Source: Antedon mediterranea (Eukaryota > Animalia > Echinodermata). Taken from it: a stretch of DNA of 64,000 nucleotides. The translations under genes were made by a program, and so were the position numbers. The stretch covers positions 13,638,352 through 13,702,351 of the forward strand of contig NC_092678.1 of the NCBI RefSeq assembly GCF_964355755.1, read 5' to 3'. Below are positions 31,899-56,162 of this stretch, one piece after another; positions within the stretch are counted from its first letter, which is position 1, and each line of letters opens with the position of its first letter. Under the pieces are notes generated by a model. The model ran no database searches, was not told the origin of the DNA, and saw only the letters and a list, made by a program, of their open reading frames with translations.

Positions 31899-32067
31899 TG
31901 TGACGTTGTTAAACGTATATATTGCAATTATTAGTTGCAAGAAATAAAATGACAGACGACTATAATGAGATCAATGAGAGAGAGTGTAACTTTTATTCAA
32001 AGCATGCTGGGAACTCCTGACTGTGACGTCATACACACATATATTTGATATAGATAGATATGTGACA
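31899..32067 (-). repeat. 3' LTR (169 bp)
   Basis: No mismatch found by eye against 55994-56162. Confidence 0.97.
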
Positions 32068-32080
32068 TCTTCCTTTTTCT
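32068..32080 (-). other. Polypurine tract
   Basis: AGAAAAAGGAAGA on the minus strand abutting the 3' LTR. Confidence 0.9.
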
Positions 32081-32211
32081 TAAACATTAACAACAATCGT
32101 AATCAAAATATCAAACTCTTGATGAAACAATTAAACTATGATAATGTAAACATTTGGGTATAATAAAACATGGATATCTGGCAGAGAAATTATGAACAAT
32201 GAGTCTTTTAA

Positions 32212-33000
32212 TTAGTATTTGTCCATTATGAAGTCATCGAAACGTTTGGGTACACGTCTATTTCGCTTTGGTCTGGTGATTACTACCTCTTCCTTTTGAG
32301 GATCAGGTGTCTTCGGCGGAGTTTCGATAGGAGTTTCATCCACTTCTCCTTCAACATTAATATCTTCTTCATGTGATTGATTTAATTGTCGGCGATTGCG
32401 TCTGTACACTTGTCCGTTTTGCGTAGCGACCATATATGATCTCGGGGTAACATGTTCAGATAACACTTTCGCGGGGACCCATTCTCGGCCTTTGTTGAGA
32501 CGGACTATCTCGTTTCCTTTCAGTGATTGTAGCGTTCGCGTTCCACGATTGTAATATTCCGCCTGTTTGTCTTGTCTAACGATCAACGAATTATGTGCGT
32601 CTGGAATCAGTGTAGGCTTAAGTTGCTCGCGTGCGATAGGAATTCGTGTTCTAAGCCTTCTGTTCATCAGCAACTGTGCTGGAGATTTGCCGATACCTCC
32701 CAATGGCGCATCTCGATAAGCGAGTAAAGCTAAATGAAAGTCTCCGTGAAAGTCATCAGCGGCTTTTCTTAACAATTGCTTGACTGTCTGTATGCACCGT
32801 TCAGCTTGACCATTGCTTTTTGCATAGTTGGGGCTCGATGTGATTAGTTCTATCCCCCATGATTTAGCGAACTTTTTCATTTAAAAACTTGCGAAAGGCA
32901 TTTTGTCGCTTACAAATGTTGCTGGAATGCCATGTCTCGCGAAAATCGTTTTTAGCCTGCCGATTACTTCTTTGGCAGTTTTGTTGCGTAGCGTGACGAT
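32212..33000 (-). pseudogene. Gypsy integrase, distal part of catalytic core and C-terminus
   Basis: IVTLRNKTAKEVIGRLKTIFARHGIPATFVSDKMPFASF*MKKFAKSWG...SSPNYAKSNGQAER...YRRNRR; one in-frame TAA. Confidence 0.95.
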
Positions 33001-33403
33001 CCACAACAACCGATGGATTGTCTCGAATTCCATAAATTCTTCCCGCGTGATTCAGGTTATTTGTAGACGTGTGCATCGGAATGCTCTTGAACTTTCCCCA
33101 TAACAGTGTCTGATGAAATTGATAATTCAATGACGTTTTTGTTCGTACGTTGAAATTTCCTCTCGTCGTAATGTTTGTCGAGCCGGTGGATGCAAACGAC
33201 AAGGCGGTGGATCCTCGACATAACGGCGATTGAAATTCTACCATGTCGTCTTGTAATTTGGTTCCTCGCATGTGTATGGAATGTGTCTTTTCACGTTTGT
33301 CGTACGCGTATCGATGAGCAATGTTCTGCGACGACACCACGTTCACTAGGAAGAAATTGATGGCAGCTGTTTTACACGTAGATTCGACTTGGACGTGCAC
33401 CAT
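33001..33403 (-). pseudogene. Insert gene of unknown function truncated at the left junction
   Basis: ATG at 33403 overlaps the kinase 1 3' end; about 134 codons then run out of frame into integrase sequence. Confidence 0.6.
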
Positions 33404-35004
33404 GAGTTTTCTCGTATAGGCGTGTGTATCGATTTTATTTTGTTTCCTAACATCTCTTTGAAAACCCTATCGGTGACCGTTTGCTGCTTCACTCCAAGAG
33501 GAAGAATGATTGACGAATCCTTTTCAATCTCGACAACTACATGACCGTCTGTCGTTTGTCGATGCGTTGGAAACAATGACACCAAGAATCGAAGTTCTCT
33601 GTCGTTGTAAACTCTAAACTCTACCGACGACGACGATGACGATGATGACGAAGGTTTTCGATACAGATTCAATGCTGATCGAACAAACACGACCGCCAAC
33701 GTGCCGTCTGCGTTGTCAATCAACAGGTTCATATGATCAACTGTTATGTTTTCGCCACTTTCTTGAAACACCACATCTCCAACTAGCGTTTGAAAGTCTC
33801 TGTAAAACAAATGAACGACATTCTGTGCAACCATCTTCACCGATAACATGTCCATAGATTCGATGTTGGTGCGCTGTGATTGAACGTCGTTCTTCAACAC
33901 TAGAAAGGACTTTCTGTTCTCCGGTATTGGATTTAAATTGTCAACAAGCCGATCGATAAAACGTTCACCGAGAACACTTCGATATCGATCCAGTATAGGC
34001 AGTTCATCGGACGGCTGGCATTCCAGAGCCTTACATATGTTCATGTCAGAGTTTACGTACGTGTACCAGTAAGCCGTTTCGAATTTTGTCATACCACCTC
34101 TTATCTTCACAAATTGTCTGCAGAGGCCGACAAGAGTGTGTAATATCTTCGACTTTTGCCCAGTGTCTCCAAGTCTTTTCATGTCTGTGTATTGCACCTC
34201 GTCAAATTGTTGGCATTCGTTGTACATTGTGGCCGTCACCACGGTCATTGCGGCAGAAAACACGTCCGATTCACTATTCAGCAGTTTCACCACTCTGTCT
34301 GTCATCACGTGACTGATATCTCGATACCCTATGGACACTAGTCTGTCTACGCTGCGCACTCCTCCGAATCCAGTGTCAACGTCCATTGTGTAGATCGGCA
34401 TGTCCGATGGTATGTACGCGGAGGCTATCGATTCTTCGTGAACGCATCCAACACCTCCAAATAAGCCGACCTTTTTGCTCGATTCAAATTCGATCATTTT
34501 TCGACGATGTACTTCGGCCGAACCGAAATCAATAAACTTGAATCGACCCTGCCGTCTGTTGTACGTCACATTCCTGATGGTTATGTCGTTATGTGCGACT
34601 CCTATCTTGTCCAGAAAAGCAAGCCCCTCGCCAACATGTCGATAAAGTGTAAGCACGCACGGCAACATTTGCATTGTCATCCGTATTGTAAACAAGTCAA
34701 AACCTTCGTTTGTCATGCGCAGACATTGAGTCACTCCTGAATCGACGACTGCCTGACATATTTGCGGCGTGTACCGTTTCAATCTGTCAAAGTAGTTTGC
34801 GTAAGCTAAAATGAAAGTTTCCTTGTTGAATGTTAAACGTACTCGTGCATCGCTGCTATTCTGATTGCCACAATGTAATTTTTCAACTAAACCAGACTCT
34901 ATGGAATGGACAACGCCAAACGAACCTCGGCTGTTCACAGTCACCAACGGATCGATTGTATTATCCAATTTGCCAAACGATAAAATCTTCTTTTGACCGT
35001 GCAT
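33346..35004 (-). CDS. Atypical protein kinase 1 with C-terminal extra domain
   Basis: RGSFGVV loop, NKE helix-C glutamate, HNDITIRNV catalytic loop, IDFGSAE, SDVFS, LNPIPENR. First ATG at 35004. Intronless. Confidence 0.9.
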   Translation of the reverse strand: MHGQKKILSFGKLDNTIDPLVTVNSRGSFGVVHSIESGLVEKLHCGNQNSSDARVRLTFNKETFILAYANYFDRLKRYTPQICQAVVDSGVTQCLRMTNEGFDLFTIRMTMQMLPCVLTLYRHVGEGLAFLDKIGVAHNDITIRNVTYNRRQGRFKFIDFGSAEVHRRKMIEFESSKKVGLFGGVGCVHEESIASAYIPSDMPIYTMDVDTGFGGVRSVDRLVSIGYRDISHVMTDRVVKLLNSESDVFSAAMTVVTATMYNECQQFDEVQYTDMKRLGDTGQKSKILHTLVGLCRQFVKIRGGMTKFETAYWYTYVNSDMNICKALECQPSDELPILDRYRSVLGERFIDRLVDNLNPIPENRKSFLVLKNDVQSQRTNIESMDMLSVKMVAQNVVHLFYRDFQTLVGDVVFQESGENITVDHMNLLIDNADGTLAVVFVRSALNLYRKPSSSSSSSSSVEFRVYNDRELRFLVSLFPTHRQTTDGHVVVEIEKDSSIILPLGVKQQTVTDRVFKEMLGNKIKSIHTPIRENSWCTSKSNLRVKQLPSISS

Positions 35005-35030
35005 TGCCGTCGTGTGCGTCAATCGAATGA

Positions 35031-36272
35031 TTAAGAGAGAATGGCTTTCTGACGTTTATCTATTTTACCTCGACAAATCGGACACAAAAGCAAACTGTTT
35101 GAACACGACCAGCAGGCGACCAAATGCGAACATGGAATGAAAAGAACACAAACGTCAGCGTCCATGCATATCTTACATGTTTTTTTTTCGCGTAAATCGC
35201 GCACAACAGATTGCACATCTTCTTCTTCCTCCACTTCTTCCTCTTCTACCACTGTTGGTTTATCGTTCACTGGAATCGTGACAGCGTTCAGAAGCTCAAG
35301 GGTAGACGTAAAGTTTCCACCGGTTCTCTTCACGTGATCGTTTACAGTAGTCGATACATGTTGCATGTCAAAACCCATTTCTAAAACTTTCACAACGATT
35401 TCAGAGCGCATTGCAATATCAAACGGACTTTTTGACGAAATAAGAGCCGTCTCGATGAAAGGAAAACCATTTTCGATTCTCAACCAATTGCAGAACGGAA
35501 ACCACTTTGCATGCTCGATCCAAGGATTATCGTCTAATTGCCAGTCTTTCAGTCCACCGCCGCAATGGAAACACATTGCCTGGTCCCGATTGATTGCAAA
35601 GAATCCGGCCTCAGCTATTCCGTTCGGCGTATGATCGGTAGCCCATACTGTAGTAAACGTCATTTTTCGAACATTCAAAAGAGCGTACTGTGGATGCATT
35701 GCCCGTTGCCTATTGTTGGTGGTGGTGGTGGTGGTGGTGGGGGTCGCCACGGTGGCCGCGGTGGATAACATGAACTTGCACAACGGGAAATGTTTTCTAT
35801 GCTTTTCGTCGACATTCACTCCTCTTTTCCATCGCTCAAGTAAACCGTTGCAAGAGAAGCATTCGACTACGTCACAGCATGACCTGTAATAAAATCCAGA
35901 CTTTGCTAAAGTGCACGCCGATACGATGTGTCCAAATGGCCAGTTTTTAAAAGTCGACAATCTGACCATATGCGAGTTTGAGTCGACCAAATGTGTTTTA
36001 CTGCCGATTAAAGGACTACTGTTACCACATGACATCAGTTTGCAAAACGGGAAGTGTTTCTTGTGCTCTGTATCGGCATCTGCTCCGGCGTTCCATCTCG
36101 AAAGTTTACCGTGACAACGGTAACATTCTACCCGGTCTTCTTGCCCCGTATAAAAGAAGCCCGACATTGCTAACGATGTAGGCGATATCACGTGTCCCGC
36201 AATCCAAAACTCATACGTGGCCAATCGTCTTTCATAACATTCCATCGCGCCTGTATGCACTATTTTATTCAT
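35031..36272 (-). CDS. iap: Inhibitor of apoptosis protein, 3 BIR + UBA + RING
   Basis: Three CxxC-x16-H-x6-C BIR motifs with GFFY/GFYY/GFF, LEMGF UBA, C-terminal CKICMD...CSH...CWSC...CPICR RING. Intronless. Confidence 0.97.
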   Translation of the reverse strand: MNKIVHTGAMECYERRLATYEFWIAGHVISPTSLAMSGFFYTGQEDRVECYRCHGKLSRWNAGADADTEHKKHFPFCKLMSCGNSSPLIGSKTHLVDSNSHMVRLSTFKNWPFGHIVSACTLAKSGFYYRSCCDVVECFSCNGLLERWKRGVNVDEKHRKHFPLCKFMLSTAATVATPTTTTTTTNNRQRAMHPQYALLNVRKMTFTTVWATDHTPNGIAEAGFFAINRDQAMCFHCGGGLKDWQLDDNPWIEHAKWFPFCNWLRIENGFPFIETALISSKSPFDIAMRSEIVVKVLEMGFDMQHVSTTVNDHVKRTGGNFTSTLELLNAVTIPVNDKPTVVEEEEVEEEEDVQSVVRDLREKKTCKICMDADVCVLFIPCSHLVACWSCSNSLLLCPICRGKIDKRQKAILS

Positions 36273-36371
36273 TTCTGTCTGTGTGCGCGAGCGGGTGTGT
36301 GTGTGTGTGTGTGTGTGTGGCCCGAAGAGTATATATTATAGCAATTTGTAAATTCAGATTCACCACACACG
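36273..36371. promoter_or_regulatory. Putative bidirectional promoter between iap and the 120-aa gene
   Basis: 99-bp spacer between divergent ATGs with TATATATTATA (~36330) and a (GT)n tract. Confidence 0.45.
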
Positions 36372-36734
36372 ATGGAGGATTCGATCGCAAAAGAAATGAA
36401 CACTGTTGTGGAAAATCTGAAATCGATATATTTTAAACAATTCTCTGATATTTTGAATACGATGATTAGAAACGGATGCAACGGATGTATTCACGAGCAT
36501 CCTTCTCAGATCGAACATGATCTATGTTTGATGGCTCCGGATAGAGAGAATATAGAACGTTTCTTTGACAACATTGTTATCGATAAAGAGGTACTGTTCA
36601 TAGAATGGTGTCATCAAAATGCTGATTTTCTGGAAAGTTGCTCTAATGTCAACGCCTGGTTCGAAGTTCTATTGTCGGAAATAAAAGATAGCAACAATTT
36701 AATCGATCAAATATACCGTTATAGATTAATTTAA
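36372..36734 (+). CDS. 120-aa protein with a CxxC-x3-HPSQ-x2-H-x2-C putative zinc motif
   Basis: Clean ATG-to-stop ORF downstream of a TATA-like element; motif CNGCIHEHPSQIEHDLC. Confidence 0.75.
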   Translation: MEDSIAKEMNTVVENLKSIYFKQFSDILNTMIRNGCNGCIHEHPSQIEHDLCLMAPDRENIERFFDNIVIDKEVLFIEWCHQNADFLESCSNVNAWFEVLLSEIKDSNNLIDQIYRYRLI

Positions 36735-36816
36735 TTTCTCTTGCGCCGGTATTTTCTTCGGTAGATTTAATATGAATTTTTACTCGACATACAACTTGTA
36801 ATATAGAAACAACTGA

Positions 36817-38279
36817 ATGTATTCTCCTTCATTCATAAGCAAGTCAAACACGAGTGTAGGTGCAGAATTTTTTCATCCAATGATCTGGTGAAAACGACCG
36901 CAGAGAAGGTTATGCCTAAGTCAGATGATTTGTTACAGGACGAAAACGCTTCGTTGAAGAAAAGTGTAAAATGTATACACCTTCTAGAACAGTTGTTGAA
37001 AGACCGTGATAAATCGTTGAACCACTTAGAGAAGACGGTAAAAAACTATAAATTATGTATTGAACATCTACAATGGCGCTTACACAAACACAACTTGGAC
37101 TCATCAGTTGATTTGAAAGAACATGAAATATTCGAGCCTGGTCACGATAAACAGATTTTAATAAGCTTGTTGAATGACGCTATACGATATAAAAGATTGC
37201 TTGACGAGAAGTTTAGCTCCGAAGAGGTAAGACGAAACTAAGTGTGAGAATATTTGTCATGAATTCGTTAAAATTATCATAGTGGTGTGAGTGTGTGATT
37301 TATTATTATTATTTTTTAATGTTCAGGTTGCCGAAGCAAAAGAAACCATTTCTGTTCTTGAGAAAGAAGTTAGTAAGCTGTGTGTACAGTTGAAACGGAA
37401 AGAGAACGAACTCATTGTTGTTTTAACTAAAATGAGATCCTCATACGACGAGAAAGATGTAGTAATTAGTAAGTTAAAATGTCAGCTACGAGATTATTTT
37501 ACACAGCGTAACAATGATGACGCTGTTCGTGACACGTTGAGCTCCGAAATAAGAACATTAAAATCAAATACTGAACAGTTTGTTGAAGAGAAAAAGAAGA
37601 TAACAAATGAACTAAAAGCATATGCGCAAAGAGAGAAGGTATGGGTACAGGAAAGAAATATGTGTTTTGCTCACGCTAGAATTTTACATTCAGAATCAAA
37701 GTTCGAAGATGAATGTAAAACGTTGCAAGAACAGGTTCGAAATTTAAGTCGTGAAAATACAGATTTATGTAGGCAATTAAAAGAGATAATTGTTATGAAC
37801 ACTCGCTGGCAAAAGTACTCTGAACAAAGAGAAGCACACGTTGTGCAGTTGAAACAACAATTGAAAGTATCTGAAAACAAAGTTTTCAAGAATCATTGCC
37901 TTATTTCTGAACTTGAGCGGATGGAAAAAGAGAAACGAAAAAAAGAAATCGATACTGCTGTTCTTAGTTTGGCAACAGATTTGGGAAAGACATGCGAATT
38001 GAATTGACTAAACACAATAACAGACTTGATGAAATAATTGGTCAATATCAAGAGACGTATGCGTCACTTCAACAATCTTACTTACCTTCTTCTAATACTC
38101 CCGATATTCTTGAATTAGTTTGTGATGATGATGATTAAGCAGCTGTAGAAGACGGTAATTTGGATGAATTATTACAATGTCCTCGTTTTCTGAAAGAGTT
38201 TAATATCATAGAACATGTTCAGTTAGTTGATCATTTAGATACATGTGATGTTGATGAATACAATAATTCTATCTTATAA
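36817..38279 (+). pseudogene. TNIP2/ABIN-2 (CEP55-related)-like coiled-coil gene with one intron, disrupted
   Basis: Phase-0 intron 37227-37326 (GTAAGA...TTCAG) joins the ORFs at 36888 and 37291. EABR-like MNTRWQKYSEQREAHVVQLKQQL; C-terminal LLQCPRFLKEF...LVDHLDTC finger. Frameshifts near 36870 and 37985; stop at 38136-38138. Start position inferred. Confidence 0.75.
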
Positions 38280-38446
38280 AATCTGTGCTGTTTTTGTTTT
38301 TGTTTTTTTGTTTCTTGCTAACAATCATTAATCAATAATAAAAGAAATTAACAGAATCTATAGTACGATCTATTCAATAACAATAAAGTGCATTTGGTAA
38401 TCTAGACGGGTATATATGCTTTTAATATAAATGATGGCGTGTTTTT

Positions 38447-39420
38447 CTCTAACACGATGTTCTCAATAAAGGAATAATAAATTGATAATAAAGTGTGTAT
38501 TTTGTAAACTAAACAGTATACAGAATTAAAAGTGTATTCGAAGTTATACTAAACGTAGAAGACGGCGTGTTTGTTCTCGATAAAGGGATAATGAATTAAA
38601 CGGCGTATAGTACTAATATTGTAGTCCTGATAACGAAGAAAATAAGTATTGCGCCCTCTATTGACAGATAATATGACTATTATTATTATATCGTGACAGA
38701 CAATATACTGTTTTTTTTAAACGGGTATAATATTCTTTTATTATAGAAGACGGCGTGATGTTCTGTAACGCGATGTTGTCGATAAAGGGATAATGAATTG
38801 ATAAAGGGATAATGAATTGATAATATTGAGTGAGAAGTATAAGGAAAGATCTAGAAGGTTATGAACATATTTTGTATAACGGGATGTATGTTCTCTCTTG
38901 TGTGTGTAAACTGAATGCTTAAACATTGATGCACACTGTCATTGAGGTCGAAGTAATCAAAGGCTGTTTTCTAATTGTTGATAATCTATTGAATTCGAAA
39001 GTAATCTATTGAATTCGGAAGTGATTTGTTGAAATCGGGTCATATCTTAATTGCCTTGAAAGAAATATAAAGCAAGTTACATATTTTTGGAAAGCTTAGA
39101 GAGTATAAACGTGTACTGCCCTTGGTGAAGAAAGTCTTGAAGATGAGTTTTTCATAAATTTTTAATGTCCCAATGTATTATGTACATCGAACGAATACCC
39201 ATTGAAAAGTTAAACAATCAAATGCTTTGACTTCTTACCGAAGTAAAAAAAAGATTTTAATTGATTTACTCATCATACAACATGCGACGAATGCATGACA
39301 TGTTATGCCTCTTCAGTTCTCTTTTTGTTGTAAACTGAATGTTTAAATATTGACGCGCGCTGTCATTGGCGTCGATGTAAAGCTTTTATTTTTCTAAAAC
39401 ATTATCGACCGAACGCTATG
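38447..39420. repeat. Diverged, rearranged copy of the insert's internal repeat
   Basis: 38447-38960 matches ~44710-45250; 38959-39095 matches ~44470-44610; another partial copy near 39325-39380. Confidence 0.8.
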
Positions 39421-39981
39421 CGTACTATCACATGTTGAATGCTTTAACAATAAATGGGCACTGTCCTTGAGAGGGAGGTCTTGAATATGAGTTTTTCATA
39501 ACACAAAGTTTATTCGAGTTTATAATAACGGACTTTCTATTTAGAAACAAATGAGAGAAGATTTGTTAATTGCGTAATACTTTTATTGATTTTTACTTTA
39601 CCTATATAAAATACAATGTAAACAAAACTAATGCCCATGATTCAGTGACAACAAAGTATTGCACCCTATATCTATAATTTATAAAATCCAATTCAATCAA
39701 TTCACGTTTTATTTCAGAACAAAGTCCATATCATAACACACAACAATATTCAATAAATTAATGTAAGTAAGTAAAAAAAAATATATAAAACAAGTCGCAC
39801 ATAAAAAATGCCGTCGGAAAACCGTCGGTTTTAAATTATTAGTGAAAAAACATTTTAATGGCTATACTGTTACGTAAAAAGTATACATGAAATTATGTAT
39901 ACAGAAGTTCAATCCATTTTCTGTGCAATTACTACTACTACTACTACTACTACTAATTTATTTTAAAAAAAATAAAAAAAA

Positions 39982-41622
39982 TCATCTACATGGTCGTTTC
40001 GCAGATGAAACTTCTTCTTCATCATCGGCCACCACCACCGTATTGTATTCGGATCTGAATTTTTCGACGCTTACTATGAGCGGTACGTCGTCGTTGACTT
40101 TCACATACATTCGGCGTATTCCATCGTGTAATTTTAATTTAGCGTTGGTGCCGAATGAATTCGACAAATGTTTAATGTCCTCGTCGCTGAACACGCAGAA
40201 TTCTACTGTAGTTGCAATATATTGACTCAGTCTGAGAGCCGACATGAGAAACGACATGATCAGTTTCCGATCGTTTGACATGATGTGCATATGTTCCACC
40301 ACCACAACGTTTTGATTCGGGCTTTCGTTGCCAAATTTGATGTCTCCAATCGAAATGTCATGTTCGTGTACTAGATACACCAATCTATCTTCAACGCGTT
40401 TCAACGAAAACTGTTTACCGCCAAACAATACAGTTGAGTCGTGTTGTTTTGAAGCCGCCTTTTCTAGTTTCGATACACTTCGACGTTCCGGTACAGGGTT
40501 CAAACATTCTTTTAAAGCGTCCGTAAACTCGACTCCCAAGAACGGACTGAATCTATCGATGTATGAATTGTATTTCTTGCTGCTGGAACAATGCGACAGT
40601 GAAAATGCGTCGGTCAGTGATCTATCCGGATTCACGTGCGTGTACCAAAACTGGAGATCACGTTCGTTCATCGGACCACGTAGTTCTACCGAATGTCTAC
40701 ACACCTTAATCAAATTGTTGTACGCAAATTTGTCCTTTTTTAAATCGCAATAGTCGCTTTGCGTCTCAAACTTATTCCGATTGTTGTCATCATAAAACAT
40801 TAAAGCCACACTCATCGAGGCGCTGTAAACGTCCGAATTTCGACGCAACATCTTCACTCGTCTGTCTGACATCACATGACTTATGTCCCTGAAAGGTATC
40901 CTTGTCAGTTTCTCCTCACTCCTGACGCACGAATATTTTGGTTCGGTGTCGGAAAAGCGTAGTCGACTTCCCGGTGGCAAGTACTTTGACGCCATGGAAC
41001 CGGTTCGAACGATACCCAAACACCGATGGCCATGTCTCTCTTTCACAGAAACGCCAAACGTGCTTGCACCGTGCTTTGTAAACTCGGCAGAACCAAAGTC
41101 TATTATACGAAATCGATTATCTAATCGACTATACGCCACGTTCTCGATTGTTATGTCGCTGTGAACCACACCTGCGTTTTCGAGAAACGTCAACGCTTTG
41201 CAAACATGTAACGAAAGCGTTTTCACGCAAGGCAGAAGCTTGTAACAATAGCGTAGCCTGTACAGATTACATCCTTCGTTTCTCATCGTGATTGATATTG
41301 CGATGTTACGCCGATAAGAAACTTCGAGCAGACGAGGCGTACACATTCGAGCCGCGTCCGTTTGTTTTAAGTGTGCAAGAACCAAAACTTCCTTGTTTCC
41401 CGACAAGTTCACGTCTTCATGCTCGAGCGTAGACGTGCGGCTGGCCGTGAAATCATACAATGTCTTTATCACAACGTGCACGTTTTCTTTAGCTGTCTTC
41501 ACTTCGCCATGTTTCTCACTTTCTTGAATTCGAATAGCGCCGTACTTGCCGTTTACAGCCGGTAAACTTTCATACTTTCTCGTTGTTATTTGCGTCTTGT
41601 ACAGGGGTAGAAATTCAGCCAT
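39982..41622 (-). CDS. Atypical protein kinase 2, paralogue of kinase 1
   Basis: NGKYGAI, VVIK, NKE, HSDITIENV, IDFGSAE, FRDISHVMSDRRVK, SDVYS, LNPVPERR. First ATG at 41622. Intronless. Confidence 0.9.
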   Translation of the reverse strand: MAEFLPLYKTQITTRKYESLPAVNGKYGAIRIQESEKHGEVKTAKENVHVVIKTLYDFTASRTSTLEHEDVNLSGNKEVLVLAHLKQTDAARMCTPRLLEVSYRRNIAISITMRNEGCNLYRLRYCYKLLPCVKTLSLHVCKALTFLENAGVVHSDITIENVAYSRLDNRFRIIDFGSAEFTKHGASTFGVSVKERHGHRCLGIVRTGSMASKYLPPGSRLRFSDTEPKYSCVRSEEKLTRIPFRDISHVMSDRRVKMLRRNSDVYSASMSVALMFYDDNNRNKFETQSDYCDLKKDKFAYNNLIKVCRHSVELRGPMNERDLQFWYTHVNPDRSLTDAFSLSHCSSSKKYNSYIDRFSPFLGVEFTDALKECLNPVPERRSVSKLEKAASKQHDSTVLFGGKQFSLKRVEDRLVYLVHEHDISIGDIKFGNESPNQNVVVVEHMHIMSNDRKLIMSFLMSALRLSQYIATTVEFCVFSDEDIKHLSNSFGTNAKLKLHDGIRRMYVKVNDDVPLIVSVEKFRSEYNTVVVADDEEEVSSAKRPCR

Positions 41623-41634
41623 AGCAGCAGCACA

Positions 41635-42133
41635 ATGTCGGCGATTTACAGATGGCAAGACACAAATTCAAAGAAATTGTACGCGGCACTGATCGTTGAA
41701 CGTAAATGGATAATACTGGAACGTTTCTCCCCTAGTGATGAATGGAGTCCACCGTTGCCTACACTCGACGTTACACCGGACACATTGGAAATCGAAATGA
41801 TAACAAAGCCAAGCTGGAACGGTGTTGTGTTCAGGGACTATAATCCACATCCGTTGCGTGAGCGAGGAGTCGCAATGAGACCGACGCTAAATTTAGCTTC
41901 GAATCTGTCGATGGCGCAGATATCCCAATGGCCAACGCATGTCGGTAAGTTCACCGATACCCATATGACGTACGAGAAGAGAACTGATGTTCTTGTGATT
42001 AACGGCTGTAGGGTAAACAGATCATATCCGACAATTTCGAGAATCATCAATCATCATCTTCACCACCACCACCCCAATGTGAAAACTAAAAACAAAAGTC
42101 GACTCATCACGCATATTACACCACCACCACCAT

Positions 42134-42166
<33 letters not shown>

Positions 42167-44106
42167 AAGACTTTATGCACACGCCTCGAATGTTGAAGCT
42201 GTTCACGTCGATGACAAGCGATCCGAACGTAGCTCTATTGGCACTCTCATTTGAGCTGTTCACCGCGTCTACCAAAAATGTGCACGCGCTACGACGGCTG
42301 CTCTCGAACATATGCGAGAGAACATCGGCATCAGATCACATACTGACGCAATCGAAACAGTTTTGGTTTCATATGCGATCGCATGGAATCAATCAACACA
42401 ACTGGCATTCAAAATCTCCATCCAATGTCGTTGCAAAGGCGAGAGAGTATCATCGTCCGCCAGTACAAGACGAATTGATTCTGGCCAGCGTTCTGTTGTG
42501 GGAAATGGCCACGTTTGCGCGTGGTAGACGTACCCCGTTCACTTTTGAAGCAGTAAAGATGCAGTGTTATTTGAACGAAGCGCGTGTTGCTGCTGCTGCT
42601 GCTGTTGAAGAAGAAGAAATCCTACGCAGAGCGTTGAATGAAGTCGCCAAGAAAAGAGAACGCACGACGTTCGCGTTAGAAGCTGAGAAGATGGGTCTAG
42701 AGAACTACGCAGTTATGAACGGTGTCTACATCGATCTTGAAACAGTTTTGTTCAATCTTCCAAAATTACGCGCTACTCTCTACAAAGAAATCGGAAAAAG
42801 ATTGTTACTGTTTGAGGATTTTGAAACGACGATTCAATGTCTGTGCCTGGACGTGCTTCGACAAGCTTCTTCCTTCTTGAGCAGTTTCGAACTCATCAAA
42901 TCCATCGCTCCTTTGTATCCAAAAAAACGCAGACGAATCACACAGAAACGCATCGAAGGAATCGACAGGTTTCTTACGAATTTTGAGCGACGCGTTGACG
43001 GCAAACGAAGAAAACGTTTTGTCAAGTACCTGCAAACTTGGATTCCGAAATTTCCTGTTCCGGAACACGACGGTTACGCCTCCTTACAACAAAGATGCGA
43101 TCAAAACGAGGCGCTTCGACTGTTTGCAATTGCCTATCCGGCCATAACATTCTCGTTCGCCGTTCCCGAAGTAAAAAACGACGCCCAGCTTATGTTTGCT
43201 CTCGCCAACTGCACATCACACCTGGGTAGACTGATGTGGTTTGACTTTGATCCGGTGACGGTACGCATCAGATCATCCGTGATCGGTCTCACGCCCCTAC
43301 AAGAACAACGCCTCGAAATGGCTTCTCTTCAACCAGCGTATGACGCGTACGAAGAGTCTATCCGCGTCACTCAGCACATTAGACACAGTATACCTTTTAT
43401 GCACGTATCGATATTCGAAGGCGTTCAAGCCAACGTGGTTTGCCGACAGAACGAACGCTACGTAACTCGTCTCTAGGCCTATCCTCTTATCTTTGCCTCG
43501 TATGACGTTATAGACGCGAATGAAGGTAATCGGCAACCTCCACAACCCAAACACGGAGAATGTACATCCTATTACCAGAACGTTGTCACTGTCGACAATG
43601 CTGGAGTGGTTAAATGGAATCATACATCGCCATGTTTTGCGCGATTCATTCAATGTGCAAACGTTTTGCTTTTATGTCATAAGAAATCAGACTTTGTTCG
43701 TGGCCCTATTCATTCCCCTGAAGATAGCGTTCACGTACTTTGTCAACTTGCACTCGATCACAAGGACGACGATAACGATGACGGAGAACTTGCGTCACCG
43801 AGATCGTTTCCTTGTCATCTACCTCGACCGTTTGATGACAATATAGTATTGATAAACGATGACAGTGGTGGTGATGGCGAGGAGAAAATACGGTTCTGTA
43901 TCGTCAGCCCGGACGATATGAGGCCTTTTTTCCCAAAAGATTTCATCGAAAGTATCATTGCCGATCCCCATCGGACGCCCGTTATACAGAAAAAGATGGT
44001 GTTTTACTTGAGGGCAGATCTTACCAATGAATACACAGAAAATCACTTTCTCTCCGACAAGGACAGAAGTGTTCTTGTTGCCGGTTCAATCATAAGACGT
44101 CGGTGA
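41635..44106 (+). pseudogene. ~823-codon orphan gene with one internal TAG
   Basis: The 613-aa and 166-aa ORFs share a frame; the only stop between them is TAG 43474-43476. No recognisable domain. Confidence 0.8.
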
Positions 44107-44444
44107 ATGAATACACACGCACACAATTCAAAACTCGGTGTTCAATTTGGTTATTATTAAGCATTGGCAATTTGGAACAGGACAGTGTAGAAATTGAAAC
44201 ATCATCATCCATTTAAGTTTAGTACTTTTTTTACGTATGGTGTTTGTTAGCACGCGATTAATAGCGCCTACAATTTTCGGTGAAGATATATACAGTACCT
44301 ACAGACAATTCCTATTGTCAAACCTGCTAATGATAAATAATTTTCATAAAGCCCGGCGAGCAGTCTTGTCCAAAAAAAAAAAGAGAGCAAAAGGGTTTAA
44401 TTTGTGATTGTGAGATTAATATTAAAATAATAATAAAAAAAATA

Positions 44445-45744
44445 AACCAATGTAATGGTCCACTGAACTTCAAAGGCTGCTTTCTAATTGTTGATAATCT
44501 ATTGAATTCGGAAGTAATCTATTGAATTCGGAGGTGATTTGTTGAAATCGGATCATATCTAATTGCCTTGAAAGAAATATAAAGCAAGTTACATATTTTT
44601 TTGGAAAGTTTAAAGAATGGAGATTAATATAATAATAATAATAATAAAATTTTAATTTCAACACAAGGCTCCTTTTGTGGTGACACGAGCCATATTTTCT
44701 TTTATTATCCCTAACACAATGTTCTCGAAAAAAAAAAATTGACCATAACGTGTCACTTTGTAAACTAAACGGTATACATTCTTTTAGTTATAGTTGTTCA
44801 CTAACACGATTTATACTAAACGGTATATTAATAGAAGACAAAGTATTTGTTATCGATGAAGGGATAATGAAATTGATATTATTATAATTTAAACGGCGAG
44901 TTTAGTATTTTGTAGTCCTGATAACGAATACAATAAGTAGTTCGCCCTCTATTGACAAATAATATACCTGCGTTATACGCCGCGTGACAGACAATAATTA
45001 TACTAGGCCTACTGTGTTTCTTAATGGGTATATTTTAGTTTTATTATAGAAGTTCTGTAACGCGATGTTGTCGATAAAGGGATAATGAATTGATAAAGGG
45101 ATAATGAATTGATGATTGAGTGAGAAGTATAAGGAATGATCTAGAAGGTTATGAACATAATATTTTGTATAAGGGGATGTATGTTCTGTCTTGTGTGTAA
45201 ACTGAATGCTTAAACATTGACGCACACTGCCATTGAGGTCGAAGTAATCATTGCATACGGATGCGTGTTACTGCTCTATCAAGATCAGGACTGCATTATT
45301 CACACACATAAAACACTGAGAGTAATAAAGAGAATCTATGCTTGATTGTTTTACACTCGAAAAATGTATTAGTATTTTGTAATAAAATAAAGGTAATTCA
45401 AATTGTCACATGATGCATTAATAAATTAATTAATGTTCATAAACGTCCAAATACTAGTTTTCTAGCATTTGTATTAAAATAATGCCTGCTATCTGTCTAT
45501 ATACTGTAGCAGATATATTTTCATGTTTCGTTCTGCTCTGCATACGGAATGTGTGTGTGTGTGTGTGTGTGTGTGTCTTCTACTGACTGACTGACTGACG
45601 TTCACGATTTAACGTTACCGCTCCAAGAATTCAATACTACAATACATTGTTTGTTGTAATATTGATATTGCTATACCTTTCAATGTTCATAAATGTCAAT
45701 ATGCTGGTGTCTCCTATTCCATCTATCTTTGGTACAGTTCTTGA
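44445..45744. repeat. ~1.3-kb direct repeat, copy 1
   Basis: Highly similar to 46087-47413; includes the last ~110 nt of the AlkB-like ORF. Confidence 0.95.
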
Positions 45745-46086
45745 GGATGAGGATACTAAAGACTGGATGGGGATAGACAAAGGTTCTGACGGCGAGGATA
45801 GTTATTGAAAACGAAGAAGAATGTGTAAGAATTTGTATAGGCCTAATCATGATCTAGAGTAGAAGTGAGTTATGTTAACAGATTGTGTGTGCTCAAAATA
45901 ATCCATTAATCAAAATAATTATGCATTTTTAATTGTTGATTTTATATATTAAGATGATAATAAAAATGAAAGAAATTAAAGTGTATTCTTTATTCGTATT
46001 CATTGTTTAAGTGTGTAAAATTTCATGTAGATCCAGTAATAATAACTAATGGTATCCAATGCGAATGTGTTGTGGTTATTGAATAG

Positions 46087-47413
46087 AACCAATGTAATGG
46101 TCCACTGAACTTCAAAGGCTGCTTTCTAATTGTTGATAATCTATTGAATTCGGAAGTAATCTATTGAATTCGGAGGTGATTTGTTGAAATCGGATCATAT
46201 CTAATTGCCTTGAAAGAAATATAAAGCAAGTTACATATTTTTTTGGAAAGTTTAAAGAATGGAGATTAATATAATAATAATAATAATAATAAAATTTTAA
46301 TTTCAACACAAGGCTCCTTTTGTGGTGACACTAGCCATATTTTCTTTTATTATCCCTAACACGATGTTCTCTAAAAAAAAAAATTGACCATAACGTGTCA
46401 CTTTGTAAACTAAACGGTATACATTCTTTTAGTTATAGTTGTTCACTAACACGATTTATTCGATAATGAACCCTAATTAAAAAAAACAAACAAAAGTGTA
46501 TTCGAAGTTATACTAAACGGTATATTAATAGAAGACAAAGTATTTGTTATCGATGAAGGGATAATGAAATTGATATTATTATAATTTAAACGGCGTGTTT
46601 AGTATTTTGTAGTCCTGATAACGAATACAATAAGTAGTTCGCCCTCTATTGACAAATAATATACCTGCGTTATATGCCGCGTGACAGACAATAATTATAG
46701 GCCTACTGTGTTTCTAAATGGGTATATTTTAGTTTTATTATAGAAGCTCTGTAACGCGATGTTGTCGATAAAGAGATAATGAATTGATAAAAGGATAATG
46801 AATTGATGATTGAGTGAGAAGTATAAGGAATGATCTAGAAGGTTATGAACATAATATTGTATAAGGCGATGTATGTTCTCTCTTGTGTGTAAACTGAATG
46901 CTTAAACATTGACGCACACTGTCATTGAGGTCGAAGTAATCATTGGATACGGATGCGTGTTACTGCTATATCAGGATCAGGACTGCATTATTCAAACACA
47001 TAAAACACTGAGAGTAATAAAGAGAATCTATGCTTGATTGTTTTACACTCGAAAAATTTATTAGTATTTTGTAATAAAATAAAGGTAATTCAAATTGTTA
47101 CATGATGCATTAATAAATTAATTAATGTTCATAAACGTCCAAATACTAGTTTCCTAGAATTTGTATTAAAATAATGTCTGCTATCTGTCTATGTAGCAGA
47201 TATATGTTCATGTTTCGTTCTGCTCTGCATACGGGATGTGTGTGTGTGTCTTCTACTGACTGGCTGACGTTCACGATTTAACGTTACCGCTCCAAGAATT
47301 CAATACTACAATACATTGTTTGTTGTAATATTGATGTTGCTATACCTTTCAATGTTCATAAATGTCAATATGCTGGTGCTTCCTATTCCATCTATCTTTG
47401 GTACAGTTCTTGA
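46087..47413. repeat. ~1.3-kb direct repeat, copy 2
   Basis: Highly similar to 44445-45744, with an extra ~50 bp near 46460-46510. Confidence 0.95.
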
Positions 47414-48022
47414 CCATTCATTGATTGTTTCAGAATTTATTACCAGCATCGAACCGTGCTCCATTTTTATGTTCACAGGTTTAATGTTTTTGTTGGTGCG
47501 GTGTTCGAATCTACAGATTCTAGTAGGTCCCAGAGACATAATGCATACAGGACTTATTTTGCTCCTTTGTACATCATTAAGATAGCATTCCGCTGAATCC
47601 TCCGCTCTTGTCAAAGTTACCATATTGTAAAAATGACCAGTCGCAATGTGTATCCATTCACGCATTTCGAGTAGAAACTTTGGCCAGTAACACAGAGGAC
47701 TTCTTCTCGCTGTGTCGTCGATGTTTGTGTGAACTCCTATTTGGAATGACAACTCCAAATCACCGTACGGTGCACATCTAATGTGATCTACTTCAGTGAT
47801 CACATCACGTAACTTATATAGAGAATCGAATAAATGTGTTTTCCTACATTGTTTTAAAATAGTGTCTGCTATCAGTCTATGTAGCAGATGTACACGAACG
47901 CATTTCATGTTATCTTCCGGTCTGCATACGGTGTGTGAATGAAAGCCGAAATAAAACTCATCTTCTGACTGGCTGACGTTCATGATTACTTTATTGCTAC
48001 AAGAATTCACTACAACTTCCAA
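47306..48022 (-). CDS. AlkB (ALKBH2/3)-like fold protein lacking catalytic residues
   Basis: WPKFLLEMREWI..ATGHFYN..SPVCIMSLGPTR..RFEH..MEHGSMLVI..EWSRTVPK..ILTF follows the ALKBH2/3 pattern. Start uncertain (TTG at 48022, first ATG at 47983). Confidence 0.8.
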   Translation of the reverse strand: MEVVVNSCSNKVIMNVSQSEDEFYFGFHSHTVCRPEDNMKCVRVHLLHRLIADTILKQCRKTHLFDSLYKLRDVITEVDHIRCAPYGDLELSFQIGVHTNIDDTARRSPLCYWPKFLLEMREWIHIATGHFYNMVTLTRAEDSAECYLNDVQRSKISPVCIMSLGPTRICRFEHRTNKNIKPVNIKMEHGSMLVINSETINEWSRTVPKIDGIGSTSILTFMNIERYSNINITTNNVL

Positions 48023-48505
48023 TTAAAGTTTGAAACTAAAACTCCATACTGGTCGATTTTTATACTTTGCGATGAAGGTTAACTACACGCGTTGTCAACA
48101 AACAACGAAACCGATGAATGATTGTCGATTATACTGATGTGTATGTGTGGTGCGCGCTTTAAAATTCGTATTGAATATATCGTGCCTCCTCTTCCTCCTA
48201 CCCGGCTTAATTTGCGTATGGTTTTCGAATGATGATCATGAACACACAAACGGGTGTAATTCCATCGTTAGTTACTTTAGTGTTACAATAAAACCGTCTC
48301 GGCAACATGATGGAAATAAGCGTCACTGTCGGTAAATGTATACACCGGTCCCAAAGAGTCAGGGTCAATTACTTTTTTTTAAGAAATATGTTTAATGTGT
48401 ATTATTATTATTATAGTTTAATATAAGCGTATTTTATAAATTTAATCTCCATTGATTCTATCATCATATTTTAAAATCAAAATGCTATGTTTTAAATTCT
48501 ATTTG

Positions 48506-48551
<46 letters not shown>

Positions 48552-49085
48552 TCCCTCTCCTTCTCTCCTTATTAATTTAGATTCGACTATGTAGAAACGG
48601 AATTTAATTTCCAAATTAAAACACTGCATTGTAACAATATTATAATCGGTCTGCTTTTCTTTTATCGATGATGACAATAGAAATAAGGGTAGGGCGTGTG
48701 TATGTATCACCGCCGGTCAGTGTACACACCAGGTCACAAAGCTTTAAAGAAATATTTTTAATTGTTATCCCGAATATGTGTGATAGAGTAATTCGTTTCG
48801 ATATATAATCATTTTGGTATACTAACAATTTGAACAAGCTTCCTCTACGCGCCCAGTCGTAAATCCAATCCTAGATTTTATATTTACCGATATTGCGACC
48901 CTATATAGTTTTTGATAAATTACTAATACTGTTATGGTATCGATAGATTGTAAGCCAGCCGAATGGTTAGTTCTTGAGTCTCGTAATTTAACGCTGTAGC
49001 CTTAGGCTAGGGTTCGAGAATTGATTTGATACATATATATATATATATTTTTTTTAAATATTTGTTTTACTCACCATCTTCTTTA

Positions 49086-50392
49086 TTGACAAATAATCTA
49101 CAACTACTAAGTGGTCATTTCCTCCAAAGTTGAAAATGTCTGCCCCAACTTTATAAAAGGGTATTTCAGGTATTTCGTGAGGTATCATTGGTTCACGTTG
49201 ATTTTTCCTTTTGTACTTCGCACATATCGTACATCTTGATACCATGTCATGAATAGCATTGGTGATACCGGGCCATTACAACAACTCTCTGGCTCTGGCC
49301 TTGGATTTCTCTATTCCTAAATGAACATCATGAATGCGGTTAAGCATGAATTCTCGTTTGCTTTCTGGTACTATCAATTTCTGCCCAATAAACATTAGTC
49401 CCTCGTGTTCATAAATTTCGTCACGCATCGGCCAAAATTGTCTTATCTTTACGCTGACTGACTGACGTCGCTCAGGCCAGCCAATATAGCACTGTTTCGA
49501 TAGTTCCTTTAGTGTCTCGTCCTCGTTAGTCGCTTGTTGTATTTCCGTTATTCTAGCTTTACTCATACTCAACAGCTCATGTACGGCATGTATACGATAT
49601 TGTAGAATTTCAGGATCATTTGTGACAGTTTCCATCGGAACCGCTCTGCTCAGTGCGTCACGTCTGCGATATACATTTCACGACCTGGAACATATGTGAC
49701 ATTTATATCATATTTTAATAGTCGTAGCATCATCTGCTGTAGTCTGGGACTCGCCTTGTGAATTGGTTTCTTTGTAATTGACTCAAGAGGTTTGTGATCA
49801 GACTGGATCGTAACTGAACGTCCGTAGACATAGTTGTTAAACCTTTCAAGTGAAAAACAAATAGCTAGCATTTCTTTTTCTATCTGAGAATAGTTCATTT
49901 CGGCTGACGTTAGTGATCGCGAACTATAGCGTATCGGGTGACCATCTTGCATTAAAACACTTCCTAGTCCAAAAGATGATGCGTCACATTGGATTACTAC
50001 TTCTTTATTCGGATCAAAGTACTTAAGTACTGGCTCTGAGCTTAACAAACTCTGCAAATGTTTTAGCGATTGGTCGTGGCGTTCATCCCAAGACCGCGCT
50101 ACTTCCTTCTTTAATAACTCTCTCATAGGAGCGCTGATGGTAGACATATTCGGAATAAATGGCGACAGATAGTTGATCATTCCCATTAAACGTCTCAGGT
50201 CAGACTTACAAGAAGGTGTAGGCATATCATAAATTGCTTTTACTTTAGAATTATCAGGCTTAACACCATCTCTACTAATTATGTGACCTAAGTATGTCAA
50301 CTCATGTTCTTTAAGCTTAATCTTATTTCTATTAAATTTTACATTTTCATCTTTAGCACGCTCCATGACTTTGGCTATCACATTATCATGAT
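49086..50392 (-). pseudogene. Gypsy pol: RT C-terminus, RNase H, linker, integrase HHCC and first catalytic Asp
   Basis: YLGH, QCDASSFGLG, NYSQIEKEMLA, SDHKPL, HDVHLG..CTIC, VGADIF, VVVDYLS; with frameshifts and stops. Confidence 0.95.
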
Positions 50393-53290
50393 TAGTAGAG
50401 CAGTTAATGACATGAGCTGTGCATTTTATTACCAAAGCATGAAACTTGGCACAAAGTTTCTTTGATGTATATAGATTCAAAATATCTGGGGGTGCCAAGT
50501 GTCCAACGTCCGGTATGGCGGCCATCTTGATTTCAAAATGGCCACCATAAAAACAAAAAAATGTTCATATCTTGGCAACTATACACATTAGAGAATTAAT
50601 TTTTGTCTTAAATTGTTCACAAACTATATATTTCTCTTTGCTCTAATGAAAAGTTTCGTCCAAAAATGACCGGAAATGACGTTTCTTACAGTTTGACCTT
50701 TGACCTCGTATTTGTATATCTCTGTAACTACTGGTCATTTTCAATCGATTTTGGTGTCATTTTGTTCAGAATAAATACATTTATATTTGTAGTAATGAAA
50801 CATTTTCACATAAAATGACCGAAAATACAATTTATGACCTTTGACATTAATTTATTGATTTTTAATTATGTGAATATACTGTAGGTGGTTTTTGTTGGTC
50901 TAAAGTGCACCTAATTTTGAACTTACCCCTGATAAGCGTAATTATATTAAATAATTAATGGACTTAAATTGTATATAGTACATAAAATTGGTAAACATTG
51001 TGCTGGCACCTTCTGATTCGCTAAAAGTTTTAATAGTTTGACAGAGGAAATAACATACATGTTATTGAATACCGTAAAACCTCGAAAAGGTGATAGTATG
51101 AGCTTCTTTTCGAGAAAGACTGTATTTGATTGTCAAATGAATAGTATGATGATTGTGTTTATATAAATATATTATTAATGACCTTACAAAGAACACTGTC
51201 TATTTCAACAATTAAGCCACAGTTATTCTACAATTTATTGTTTTCCAAGTGGTAGGCCTATTTTGATTGCATCTTATTTTTGTATGCTTCCTCGTTTAAT
51301 ATGGTCCTAACCCTCCTTCTTTGTCTGTGGATAGTCTTATGCACCCTTCTTTGTCTGTGGATGGTTTTACACCCCTTTCTTTGTCTGTGGACGGTCTTAT
51401 ACCCCTTTCTTTGTCTTTGGATGGTCTTATACCCCCTTCTGTGTCTGTTGATGGTATTACACCTCTTTCTTTGTCTGTTGATGGTATTAAACCCCTTTCT
51501 TTGTGTGTGGATGGTCTTACACCCCTTCTTTGTCTGTGGGTGGCCTTACATCCCCTTCTTTGTCTGTGGATGGTCCGATGGTCCTATACCTCCATTTTTG
51601 TCTGTGGATGGTCTTACACCCCTTCTTTGTCTGTAAGTGGTCCTATACCCCTTTCTTTGTCAGTGGTGGATGGTCTTACACCCCCTTCTTTGTCTGTGGA
51701 CGGTTCTACACCCCCTTCTTTGTCTGTGGATGGTCTTACACCTCTTTCTTTTTCTGTGGACGGTCTTATACCCCCTTCTATGCCTGTGGGTGATCTTACA
51801 CCGCTTTCTTTGTCCATTGATGGTATTACACCCCTTTTTTGTATGTGGATGGTCTTATACACCCCTTTCTTTGTGTATGGATGGTCTTGCACTCCTTTAA
51901 TTTGTCTGTGGATGGTCTTACACCCCCTTCTTTGTCTGTGGATGGTCTTATACCCCCTTCTTTTGTCTGTGGATGGTCTTATATCCCCTTCTTTGTCTGT
52001 GGATGGTCTTCTCCCTTTCTTTGTCTGTGGATGGTCCTACACCCCTTATTTGTCTGTGGATGGTCTTATACCCTCTTCTTTGTCTGTAAGTGGTCCTATA
52101 CCCCTTTCTTTTTCAGTGGATGGTCTTGCACCCCCTTCTTTGTCTGTGGACGGTCCTACGCCCCCTTCTTTGTCTGTGGATGGTCATATACCCCTTTTTT
52201 TGTCAGTGGATGGTCTTACATCCCCTTCTTTGTCTGTGGATGGTATTAAACCCCTTTCTTTGTATGTGGATGGTCTTACAACCCCTTCTTTGTCTGTGGA
52301 TGGTCTTACACCCCCTTCTTTGTCTGGACCCACTACTTTGATTGATGAAATTAGACATTGTTTCTTGTATGATTAGGAAACCAAGACCTTTAAAGTGAAA
52401 GTTCACAGGTGGATGCCTAGGTCTTGTACAGAACAGTATATTGTAGGTCCATGTCACTAATTTGAGGATTACTTGAATAATTATATTTAGATGTCTTTTA
52501 CGAATTGATTTAGTTCGGATTTTGCTAAAAAATCAATGACTAGAGAAAATCAAGGAAAAGGATTCAGATGAAAGGTTTACAGCAAAGGCCTATTACCATA
52601 AAAATGGAGTAAATTTTTTTAGATGCAACGAAAAAACGATTGACACATCACAGTTTAGCAAACATGTCGGCATAGATGAGCTCAGTGATCTGTCATACTT
52701 TATGCCTATCCTATCACATCAAAAGTTAAAAATTCAGAATAATAATTCCGTGTCATTTATTTCGGTAAAAAAATTAGGTGCATTTATACCAATTAAACCA
52801 CATACAGTATGTTCACATAATTATATATGTCAAAGGTTATAAATTGTATTTCCAGTAATTTTATGTGAAAATGTTTCATTACTACAAATATAAATGTCTC
52901 TATTCTGAACAAAATGACACCAAAATCGATTGAAAATTATCAGTAGTTACTGAGATATACAGATAAGAGGTCAAAGGTCAAACTGGAAGAAACGTCATTT
53001 CCGGTCATTTTTGGACGAAACTTTTCATTAGAGCAAATAGAAATATGTGGTTTGTGAACAATTTAACACCAGAATCAAGTCTCTACTGTTTATAGTTGCC
53101 AAGATATGAACACTTTTTGTTTTTATGGTGGCCATTTTGAAATCAAGATGGCCGCCATACCGGACGTTGGACACTTGGCACCCCCAGATATTTTGAATCT
53201 ATATACATCAAAGAAACTTTGTGGAAAGTTTCATGCTTTGGTAATAAAGTGCACAACTTGGCTATTTTTATGGCGTTAACTGCTCTACTA
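50393..53290. mobile_element. Academ-like non-autonomous element inserted in the Gypsy RT
   Basis: TAGTAGAGCAGTTAA...TTAACTGCTCTACTA, ~500-bp inverted arms, 3-bp TSD GAT (50390-50392, 53291-53293). Removal restores DDEKHHDNVIAKV in frame. Confidence 0.93.
51300..52330. repeat. ~30-bp minisatellite, over 30 copies
   Basis: Unit CCCCCTTCTTTGTCTGTGGATGGTCTTACA. Confidence 0.97.
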
Positions 53291-54617: not shown

Positions 54618-54760
54618 TTTATTTTTATTTATTTATTTTTTATTTATTAAGGTATAAAAACATCAAATTCCAACCAGCAGCAAGAGCTGAAAAGGTTGGA
54701 TTACAATCAACTGAGAAATAAAATACATCAAAGAAGATCAAAACTAAACATTAAACTTAA
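54618..54760 (-). mobile_element. Short insertion in gag, probably a 5'-truncated LINE 3' end
   Basis: Non-gag sequence ending in an (AAAT)n/A-rich tail on the minus strand; gag frame resumes ASVNEVKKS. Boundaries approximate. Confidence 0.55.
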
Positions 54761-54870
54761 AGGATTATCAGACATTATCAGTGTCAATTCTCGCTTAGAA
54801 CTCTCATAATTACGCATACGTTTGACTACAGTCTCTAAAGATGCGTTACCATCATCTCCCATAACCTTAA

Positions 54871-55950: not shown

Positions 55951-55978
55951 TGCAAATTATTTTATACAATAAAATGCA

Positions 55979-55993
55979 CCACTTCTGACACCA
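55979..55993 (-). other. Primer binding site, tRNA-Leu type
   Basis: TGGTGTCAGAAGTGG directly after the 5' LTR, complementary to the 3' end of tRNA-Leu(CAA). Confidence 0.88.
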
Positions 55994-56162
55994 TGTGACG
56001 TTGTTAAACGTATATATTGCAATTATTAGTTGCAAGAAATAAAATGACAGACGACTATAATGAGATCAATGAGAGAGAGTGTAACTTTTATTCAAAGCAT
56101 GCTGGGAACTCCTGACTGTGACGTCATACACACATATATTTGATATAGATAGATATGTGACA
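55994..56162 (-). repeat. 5' LTR (169 bp)
   Basis: Matches 31899-32067. Confidence 0.97.

Follow-up and report, generated by a model that had tools for sequence, protein, structure and literature searches.

Two CMGC-like kinases with a predicted GNAT-fold tail on a probably virus-derived insertion in the genome of Antedon mediterranea

We analysed a 64,000-nucleotide stretch of the genome of the echinoderm Antedon mediterranea (RefSeq assembly GCF_964355755.1, contig NC_092678.1, positions 13,638,352 to 13,702,351 of the forward strand; hereafter the window), which contains two genes for atypical protein kinases, K1 (33346..35004, minus strand) and K2 (39982..41622, minus strand), within an inserted block of 16,092 bp (33000..49091). 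The reading that we favour, somewhat better than an even bet and built on conserved residues and structure models, is that K1 and K2 are active CMGC-like kinases, each carrying a catalytically dead domain of the GNAT acetyltransferase fold that would serve for docking, and that they lie on a fragment derived from a virus. An earlier, sequence-only reading of the same DNA, which had described the two kinases and suggested a GNAT-like tail, had missed the wider family to which they belong, the CMGC-like fold of the kinase domain and the setting, which is inserted and virus-like.

Both open reading frames (ORFs) have the ends given in that reading. K1 encodes 552 aa, with a kinase domain reaching to about residue 364 and a predicted GNAT-fold tail at about 380-500; K2 encodes 546 aa, with a kinase domain at about 31-393, the predicted tail at 395-512 and then a disordered end. 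The proteins are paralogues, 35% identical over 440 columns (BLASTP, E 1e-68), in an alignment that extends through the tail to residues 480/492. They had been described as a pair, and this holds for their kinship but not for their position, as they lie 5 kb apart with one inhibitor of apoptosis (IAP) gene and three small ORFs between them. The shared tail had been put at about 130 aa: its blocks (V/IGD, V.HM, F..SAL.L and VEF.V) do align between K1 and K2, with a similarity that beats all 500 shuffles, but the folded domain is of about 118 aa (K2 395-512). As already read, the catalytic loops follow HxDITIxNV (HNDITIRNV and HSDITIENV) and a long activation segment ends in (Y/F)RDISHV, the subdomain VIII sequences YRDISHV and FRDISHV standing 68 and 69 residues past the DFG Asp. 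The catalytic Lys, Glu, Asp, Asn and DFG are all retained by both proteins, Thr occupies the catalytic-loop Lys position, the HRD Arg and APE Glu are absent, and the glycine-rich loop of K2 is without its first Gly. A Pfam scan gave a weak kinase match only (E 4e-5 and 5e-7, under the Pkinase cut-off) and no match in the tails.

When a profile of K1 and K2 was searched against 1.84 billion proteins, 65 matches were obtained at E<=0.001, nine of them at E<=1e-10. P0001 is a 180-aa fragment (in a record of 1,091 nt) from the crinoid Anneissia japonica, annotated as CLK1-like and 50% identical to K2, while P0002-P0009, from ENA, Logan, JGI and NCBI, are 479-639 aa long and 20-26% identical to K2; the architecture of a kinase followed by a GNAT-fold tail is common to K1, K2 and eight relatives. 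A quick tree was built from 76 kinase cores with unnamed outgroups; in it, K1, K2 and P0001-P0009 (11 rows) form a single clade with an SH-aLRT of 94, within which K1, K2 and P0001 group with a support of 100. P0012, P0015, P0036 and the fragment P0031 form the sister group, and all 15 together have a support of 99. At the catalytic-loop position where all 11 clade rows have Ser/Thr in place of Lys, also lacking the HRD Arg and APE Glu, the three full-length sisters have Lys; of the 62 other rows, 47 have Lys and three have Thr. The tails of the sisters look different as well: one was not scored and the scores of the others were reached by 5 and 110 of 500 shuffles. P0012, P0015 and P0036 have a distinct tail containing Cys and His, and P0015 lies on a 1.34-Mb contig. 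The contigs of P0006, P0007 and P0008 measure 39,758, 27,047 and 60,180 nt.

The fusion had been called a family not recognised, and we likewise found no named family of this architecture among the 14 members scanned with Pfam, which gave nothing beyond generic kinase-like models and listed no UL97-family match; neither was a kinase-GNAT fusion found in NCBIfam, the PDB or predicted viral structures. No paper describing one was found by titles and the starts of abstracts, and the supplements of PMC13030845 and the supplements and figures of bioRxiv 2025.04.19.649669 may show such kinases. A word-based protein search recovered none among 5,075 candidates for K2 and none among 5,476 for alignment A2, and scans of viral contigs gave either no match or short matches at the catalytic loop of unrelated kinases (18 and 3 loci).

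The full-length K2 model, built from 14 sequences (pLDDT 76, pTM 0.81), was compared with 48,161 solved chains, the set also used for the tail. It has a two-lobed eukaryotic protein kinase fold, and the top 15 structural rows are all CMGC kinases, with PRPF4B in first place (Z 22.6, rmsd 3.4, 274 aligned), followed by CLK2 (Z 22.4) and CDK3 (Z 22.1), with CLK3 also among the leaders; non-CMGC groups come 1-2 Z lower. Among solved chains no alignment goes beyond residue 486, and viral structures returned generic kinases only, at 9-16% identity. In the family alignment the beta3 Lys is found in 13/13 rows reaching that position, the His, Asn and DFG Asp/Gly in 14/14, the catalytic Asp in 13/14 and the alphaC Glu in 10/11, with Asp in the remaining row. 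The subdomain VIII Asp is present in 12/13 rows, the subdomain XI Arg in 13/13 and the subdomain VIII Arg, which CMGC kinases share, in 10/13; all 15 invariant columns of the full-length alignment fall in the kinase part. The predicted kinase fold is CMGC-like, and from their retained residues K1 and K2 are likely serine/threonine kinases that keep their activity. The loss of both the HRD Arg and the catalytic-loop Lys would be compatible with activity, because UL97 of human cytomegalovirus (HCMV) shares both changes: in the passages of PMC12301049 available to us, UL97 has no HRD Arg (454-HFD-456) and its Thr458 is modelled in place of the Lys contact to ATP. This likeness had been offered as a weak hint to the conserved herpesvirus kinases, and it stands as such, correct in its motif and still of little weight for membership in that family; UL97 is the member for which the loop was compared.

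The tail of K2 (residues 395-512, 118 aa; 40087..40440, minus strand) was modelled by itself from 10 sequences, with a pLDDT of 91.3. Its elements follow the order of five beta strands, a helix, a strand, a helix and two strands, and in the model they form a mixed beta-sheet in which the b4-a3-b5-a4-b6 core of GNATs is present. Foldseek returned 119 matches in the PDB at E<=0.001, and each of the 30 listed is either a GNAT acetyltransferase or the GNAT-like domain of Mycobacterium tuberculosis ICL2, whose C-terminal domain is the top match (E 2.9e-6, TM 0.65). A second, independent aligner placed first the acetyltransferase DfoC (Z 9.7, rmsd 2.9, 112 aligned), with 3fnc (Z 9.6) and ICL2 (Z 9.6, rmsd 3.0, 113 aligned) tied at the top, and 24 of the solved chains reached Z>=8. 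Because Foldseek and the independent aligner agree, we hold with high confidence that the modelled tail has a GNAT fold, as the earlier reading had proposed from the pattern of strands and helices. The corresponding domain of K1 (33505..33867, minus strand) was placed by alignment and not folded on its own.

That reading had also observed that the tail is without the R/QxxGxG motif, and motif A (R/QxxGxG/A) is indeed missing in 10/10 tails. There is no helix of at least 4 residues ahead of a3 in the K2 tail model, so that a1-a2, the helices which normally wall the acceptor site of GNATs, are absent. Not one column is invariant among the 10 tails, and a hydrophobic-x-Pro following beta4, found in 6/10, is absent in K1 and K2. 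With only slightly less assurance than for the fold, we take the tail to be non-catalytic, judging by these residues. In a held-out test with a profile made without K1 and K2, the K1 tail scored 11.7 bits and the K2 tail 10.4, against shuffle maxima of 8.7 and 8.8 (500 shuffles each), and 8/10 tails outscored all 500 shuffles; in this test the P0004 segment took in kinase residues and the length of the P0036 segment was mis-parsed. Tail sequence profiles had no match in the PDB and none in Pfam, and in the ESM Atlas all matches were below 0.85, with one Acetyltransf_1 lead at 0.80. Against viral structures, the K2 tail model matched stand-alone GNAT-type and unnamed proteins, with 0/50 rows named kinase.

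As to the setting of the two genes, the block is dense in genes, mostly of a single ORF, foreign in composition and inserted in host DNA: its CpG observed/expected ratio is 1.34, against 0.84 and 0.82 in the flanks, and ORFs cover 79% of 33000-44106. At the left junction lies the 5' half of a conserved unknown gene (33000..33403, minus strand), which overlaps the end of K1 and is truncated by the junction. It is 46% identical over 128 aa (E 3e-35) to a 240-aa ORF at 6916-7638 (+) of L019, the locus of P0008, where it has the same overlapping arrangement behind the kinase. A likeness of this gene to TBP, seen by eye, was not supported: an archaeal TBP gave E 1.2, Pfam no match, and in a comparison with 4 giant-virus TBPs 369 and 651 of 1,000 shuffles scored as high, with an hhalign probability of 0.1. 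Beside P0008 there is also a matrixin-like metalloprotease with a signal-like start (L019 7603-8292, minus strand) and a 152-aa unknown ORF (2981-3439, plus strand). On the other side of K2, and head to head with it, a conserved unknown gene of about 820 codons (41635..44106, plus strand) is interrupted by an in-frame stop at 43474-43476; both pieces match the single 809-aa protein P0066 (48% and 40% identity; on a contig of 19,013 nt), its sole relative found, and neither has a match in Pfam or NCBIfam nor anything usable in the ESM Atlas.

Between the kinases, the IAP gene (35031..36272, minus strand) is a single ORF of 413 aa with three BIR domains, a UBA and a RING. It is followed by small ORFs (36372..38279, plus strand): an unknown ORF of 120 aa, and coiled-coil pieces at 36912-38279 that include a CEP55/EABR-like stretch and which we presume to resemble adaptors of the ABIN2/NEMO type. 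Near 37228 and 37327 the pieces have sites that look like splice sites, their end resembles a zinc finger, and both a change of frame and a stop disrupt them; they are possibly one gene, spliced and broken, if the splice sites are rightly read. The right part of the block holds a stretch of about 1.7 kb duplicated in tandem at 92% identity (44441..47413), related to the repeats at 38443-39102, and an AlkB-like 2OG-Fe(II) oxygenase ORF of 225 aa (47306..47983, minus strand) with a weak Pfam match (E 9e-4, under the cut-off). The duplicate takes in part of the AlkB-like gene and belongs to an AT-rich repeat family in the block (38443-39400 and 44441-47413), for which the high depth in read set X1 suggests further copies elsewhere.

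The block interrupts the integrase of a Gypsy retrotransposon (31899..56162, minus strand), whose 169-bp long terminal repeats are 100% identical and which is flanked by a 5-bp target duplication; the element is therefore young. In 4/4 runs the Gypsy element is found uninterrupted (joint 32999-49092), with 18 other letters where the block sits, so that the insertion replaced 18 host letters. At the ends of this fragment there is no terminal inverted repeat, target duplication, telomere repeat or TTAA, and these ends do not have the terminal inverted repeats and target duplication of a Maverick/Polinton or a piggyBac-fused (Teratorn) element. Past 33000, one contig each in X1 and X5 continues into other DNA, for 195 and 435 letters, and the window therefore holds a fragment of a larger entity. 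Positions 39900-44200 are partly present in 11 runs (5 studies, 4 coded organisms), with at least half of the words in five. The contig depths listed are 977-1,347 for the block and 535-740 for host-unique DNA in X1, and 31-87 and 85-152 in X5, and in X9 the block is scarcely covered; as depth is not copy number, these values let us call the block only low-copy.

Taking into consideration this composition and setting, we judge a viral origin of the block probable; its likely source is a large DNA virus of marine invertebrates. During infection the kinases, together with the IAP, may steer the cell-cycle, RNA-processing or death pathways of the host. Without the HRD Arg, the kinases would be independent of phosphorylation of the activation loop, and the near-invariant subdomain VIII Asp would substitute for the APE Glu in the salt bridge to the subdomain XI Arg. 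The tail, lacking the usual acetyl-CoA loop, would be a non-catalytic docking or regulatory domain that packs against the C-lobe and recruits substrates or partners.

Several points weigh against the reading of active kinases with a dead docking domain on a viral fragment. One modelled tail, that of K2, is the basis for the GNAT fold, and its best Z of 9.7 is modestly over the 7-8 usual for arbitrary models; the scores of the P0005 and P0008 tails were equalled by 7 and 4 of 500 shuffles, and the packing of the tail on the kinase is deduced solely from the pTM of 0.81. The P0009 tail has a full-length RxxNxC loop, a relaxed form of motif A, and the ICL2 domain binds acetyl-CoA, so that the tails may yet bind a cofactor, P0009 being the likeliest to do so. 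The genes identified in this 16-kb fragment include none for a capsid, a terminase/packaging ATPase, a DNA polymerase or an integrase, so the viral origin rests on context. Among the 40 best-supported of 578 variant rows between copies, 9 of 14 listed differences in K1 are synonymous, against 23-28% expected (p 0.001-0.005), which is in favour of our reading, while the IAP gene shows no such excess (3/9).

The tail might instead be a sensor that binds acetyl-CoA or another acyl-CoA without transfer and switches the kinase, in the manner of M. tuberculosis ICL2, in which a GNAT-like module sits on an enzyme activated by acetyl-CoA (PMC6788997, in the passages available). This would agree with the rank of the ICL2 domain, first in Foldseek and tied at the top by Z, with the hydrophobic-x-Pro in 6/10 tails and with the RxxNxC of P0009; but ICL2 is tied with ordinary acetyltransferases at 12% identity, the Pro and the loop are both absent from K1 and K2, and no residue is invariant in 10 tails, so we hold it to be rather unlikely. 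The bolder proposal that the kinase-GNAT family belongs to an undescribed, probably herpes-like, virus lineage that integrates in marine invertebrates, with the tail as an acyl-CoA switch reading host acetyl-CoA, appears less likely again. That the protein is both a kinase and an acetyltransferase, with an atypical CoA site, is very improbable: the fold matches many active GNATs, and GNATs hold CoA mainly via backbone atoms, but motif A is missing in every tail and a1-a2 in the K2 tail model. These explanations, and those that follow, partly overlap and are not all exclusive.

As for the block, it could be the cargo of a large non-viral mobile element or a mobile cluster of host genes, with the kinases as fast-evolving, host-derived CMGC members. 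We find this unlikely. It draws on the lack of an identified virus hallmark gene within the fragment, on the annotation of the nearest named relative, the crinoid P0001, as CLK1-like, on one small gene with a possible intron and on a depth close to host level. It is opposed by the failure to identify terminal repeats, a target duplication or a transposase, by the CpG-rich, gene-dense and for the most part single-ORF content, and by a gene order of Pfam-less conserved unknown genes kept across 20% kinase identity; P0001, in its 1,091-nt record, may itself lie on such an element. An assembly artefact that fused a free virus contig to host DNA is a further explanation, to which we give very little credence: no listed contig spans either junction of the window copy and the Gypsy element is uninterrupted in all four runs, but the block is flanked by the two halves of a single integrase gene, in their proper order and with 18 letters replaced, contains a nonsense break and a tandem duplicate, and in two runs has a depth about two-fold or less from that of host-unique DNA. 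Such an artefact would leave the protein finding unchanged.

Compared with known systems, K1 and K2 resemble CMGC kinases (PRPF4B, CLK, DYRK, CDK) in their best structural matches and in the subdomain VIII Arg, and differ from them in identity (14-18%), in the absent HRD Arg, catalytic-loop Lys and APE Glu, in an activation segment that runs to about 68 residues and includes a beta insert, and in the GNAT tail. To our knowledge, conserved herpesvirus kinases have no C-terminal GNAT domain. With UL97-type kinases, described as CDK-like, they share the virus-like setting besides the catalytic loop. When the viral structures were searched by fold, UL13-type kinases were placed no better than generic ones (ranks 7, 48 and others; 11-14% identity). 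As in ICL2, a GNAT fold is attached to an unrelated enzyme, but in ICL2 the domain binds acetyl-CoA, whereas K1 and K2 have a shortened loop and a kinase as the partner, and any binding is putative.

In the accessible parts of their descriptions, BelcheriHV-1/2, nimaviruses, Teratorn and the deep-branching Herpesvirales regions of starfish and ribbon worm are, like our block, gene-dense, GC-richer and low-copy, and integrated large DNA viruses of invertebrates carry IAP, AlkB-like or kinase genes; unlike them, the block has no identified hallmark gene, telomere repeat or TTAA end. Amphioxus has integrated herpes-like genomes at one or two copies, for one of which table S4 gives IAP and ALKBH2-like genes, and in the BelcheriHV table, as far as it is available, none of the 11 places with 'kinase' is a protein-kinase match (PMC12373286). 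Nimaviruses have kinase, TBP and BIR genes in the passages of PMC10871703, and SalHV-1 has five kinases, none assignable to the conserved herpesvirus kinase, in those of PMC13030845; GNAT or acetyltransferase is not mentioned in the available main texts of these two papers, and a kinase-GNAT fusion is not named in the amphioxus herpesvirus, nimavirus or SalHV-1 passages.

The fusion is conserved in at least ten proteins, down to 20% identity, and would exemplify an enzyme fold put to new use after the loss of its active-site loop; P0009 looks half-way. Its sequence may also serve to recognise, in invertebrate genomes, large DNA viruses of a group that is likely unclassified; should these be herpes-like, the Thr/Ser loop opens the origin of the conserved herpesvirus kinases to phylogeny.

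By its low GC, microsatellites and LINEs the window is animal DNA. The Gypsy element has received other insertions: one is an element with inverted repeats and a 60-bp tandem array (50393-53290), another a 541-bp repeat (54968-55504) that also occurs at 4008-4548. Two LINEs lie at 15397-19557 (minus strand; its ORF1 with PHD and GDSL-esterase domains) and 20572-25768 (plus strand), and a MITE-like element at 26412-27274 has 67-bp perfect inverted ends and internal repeats.

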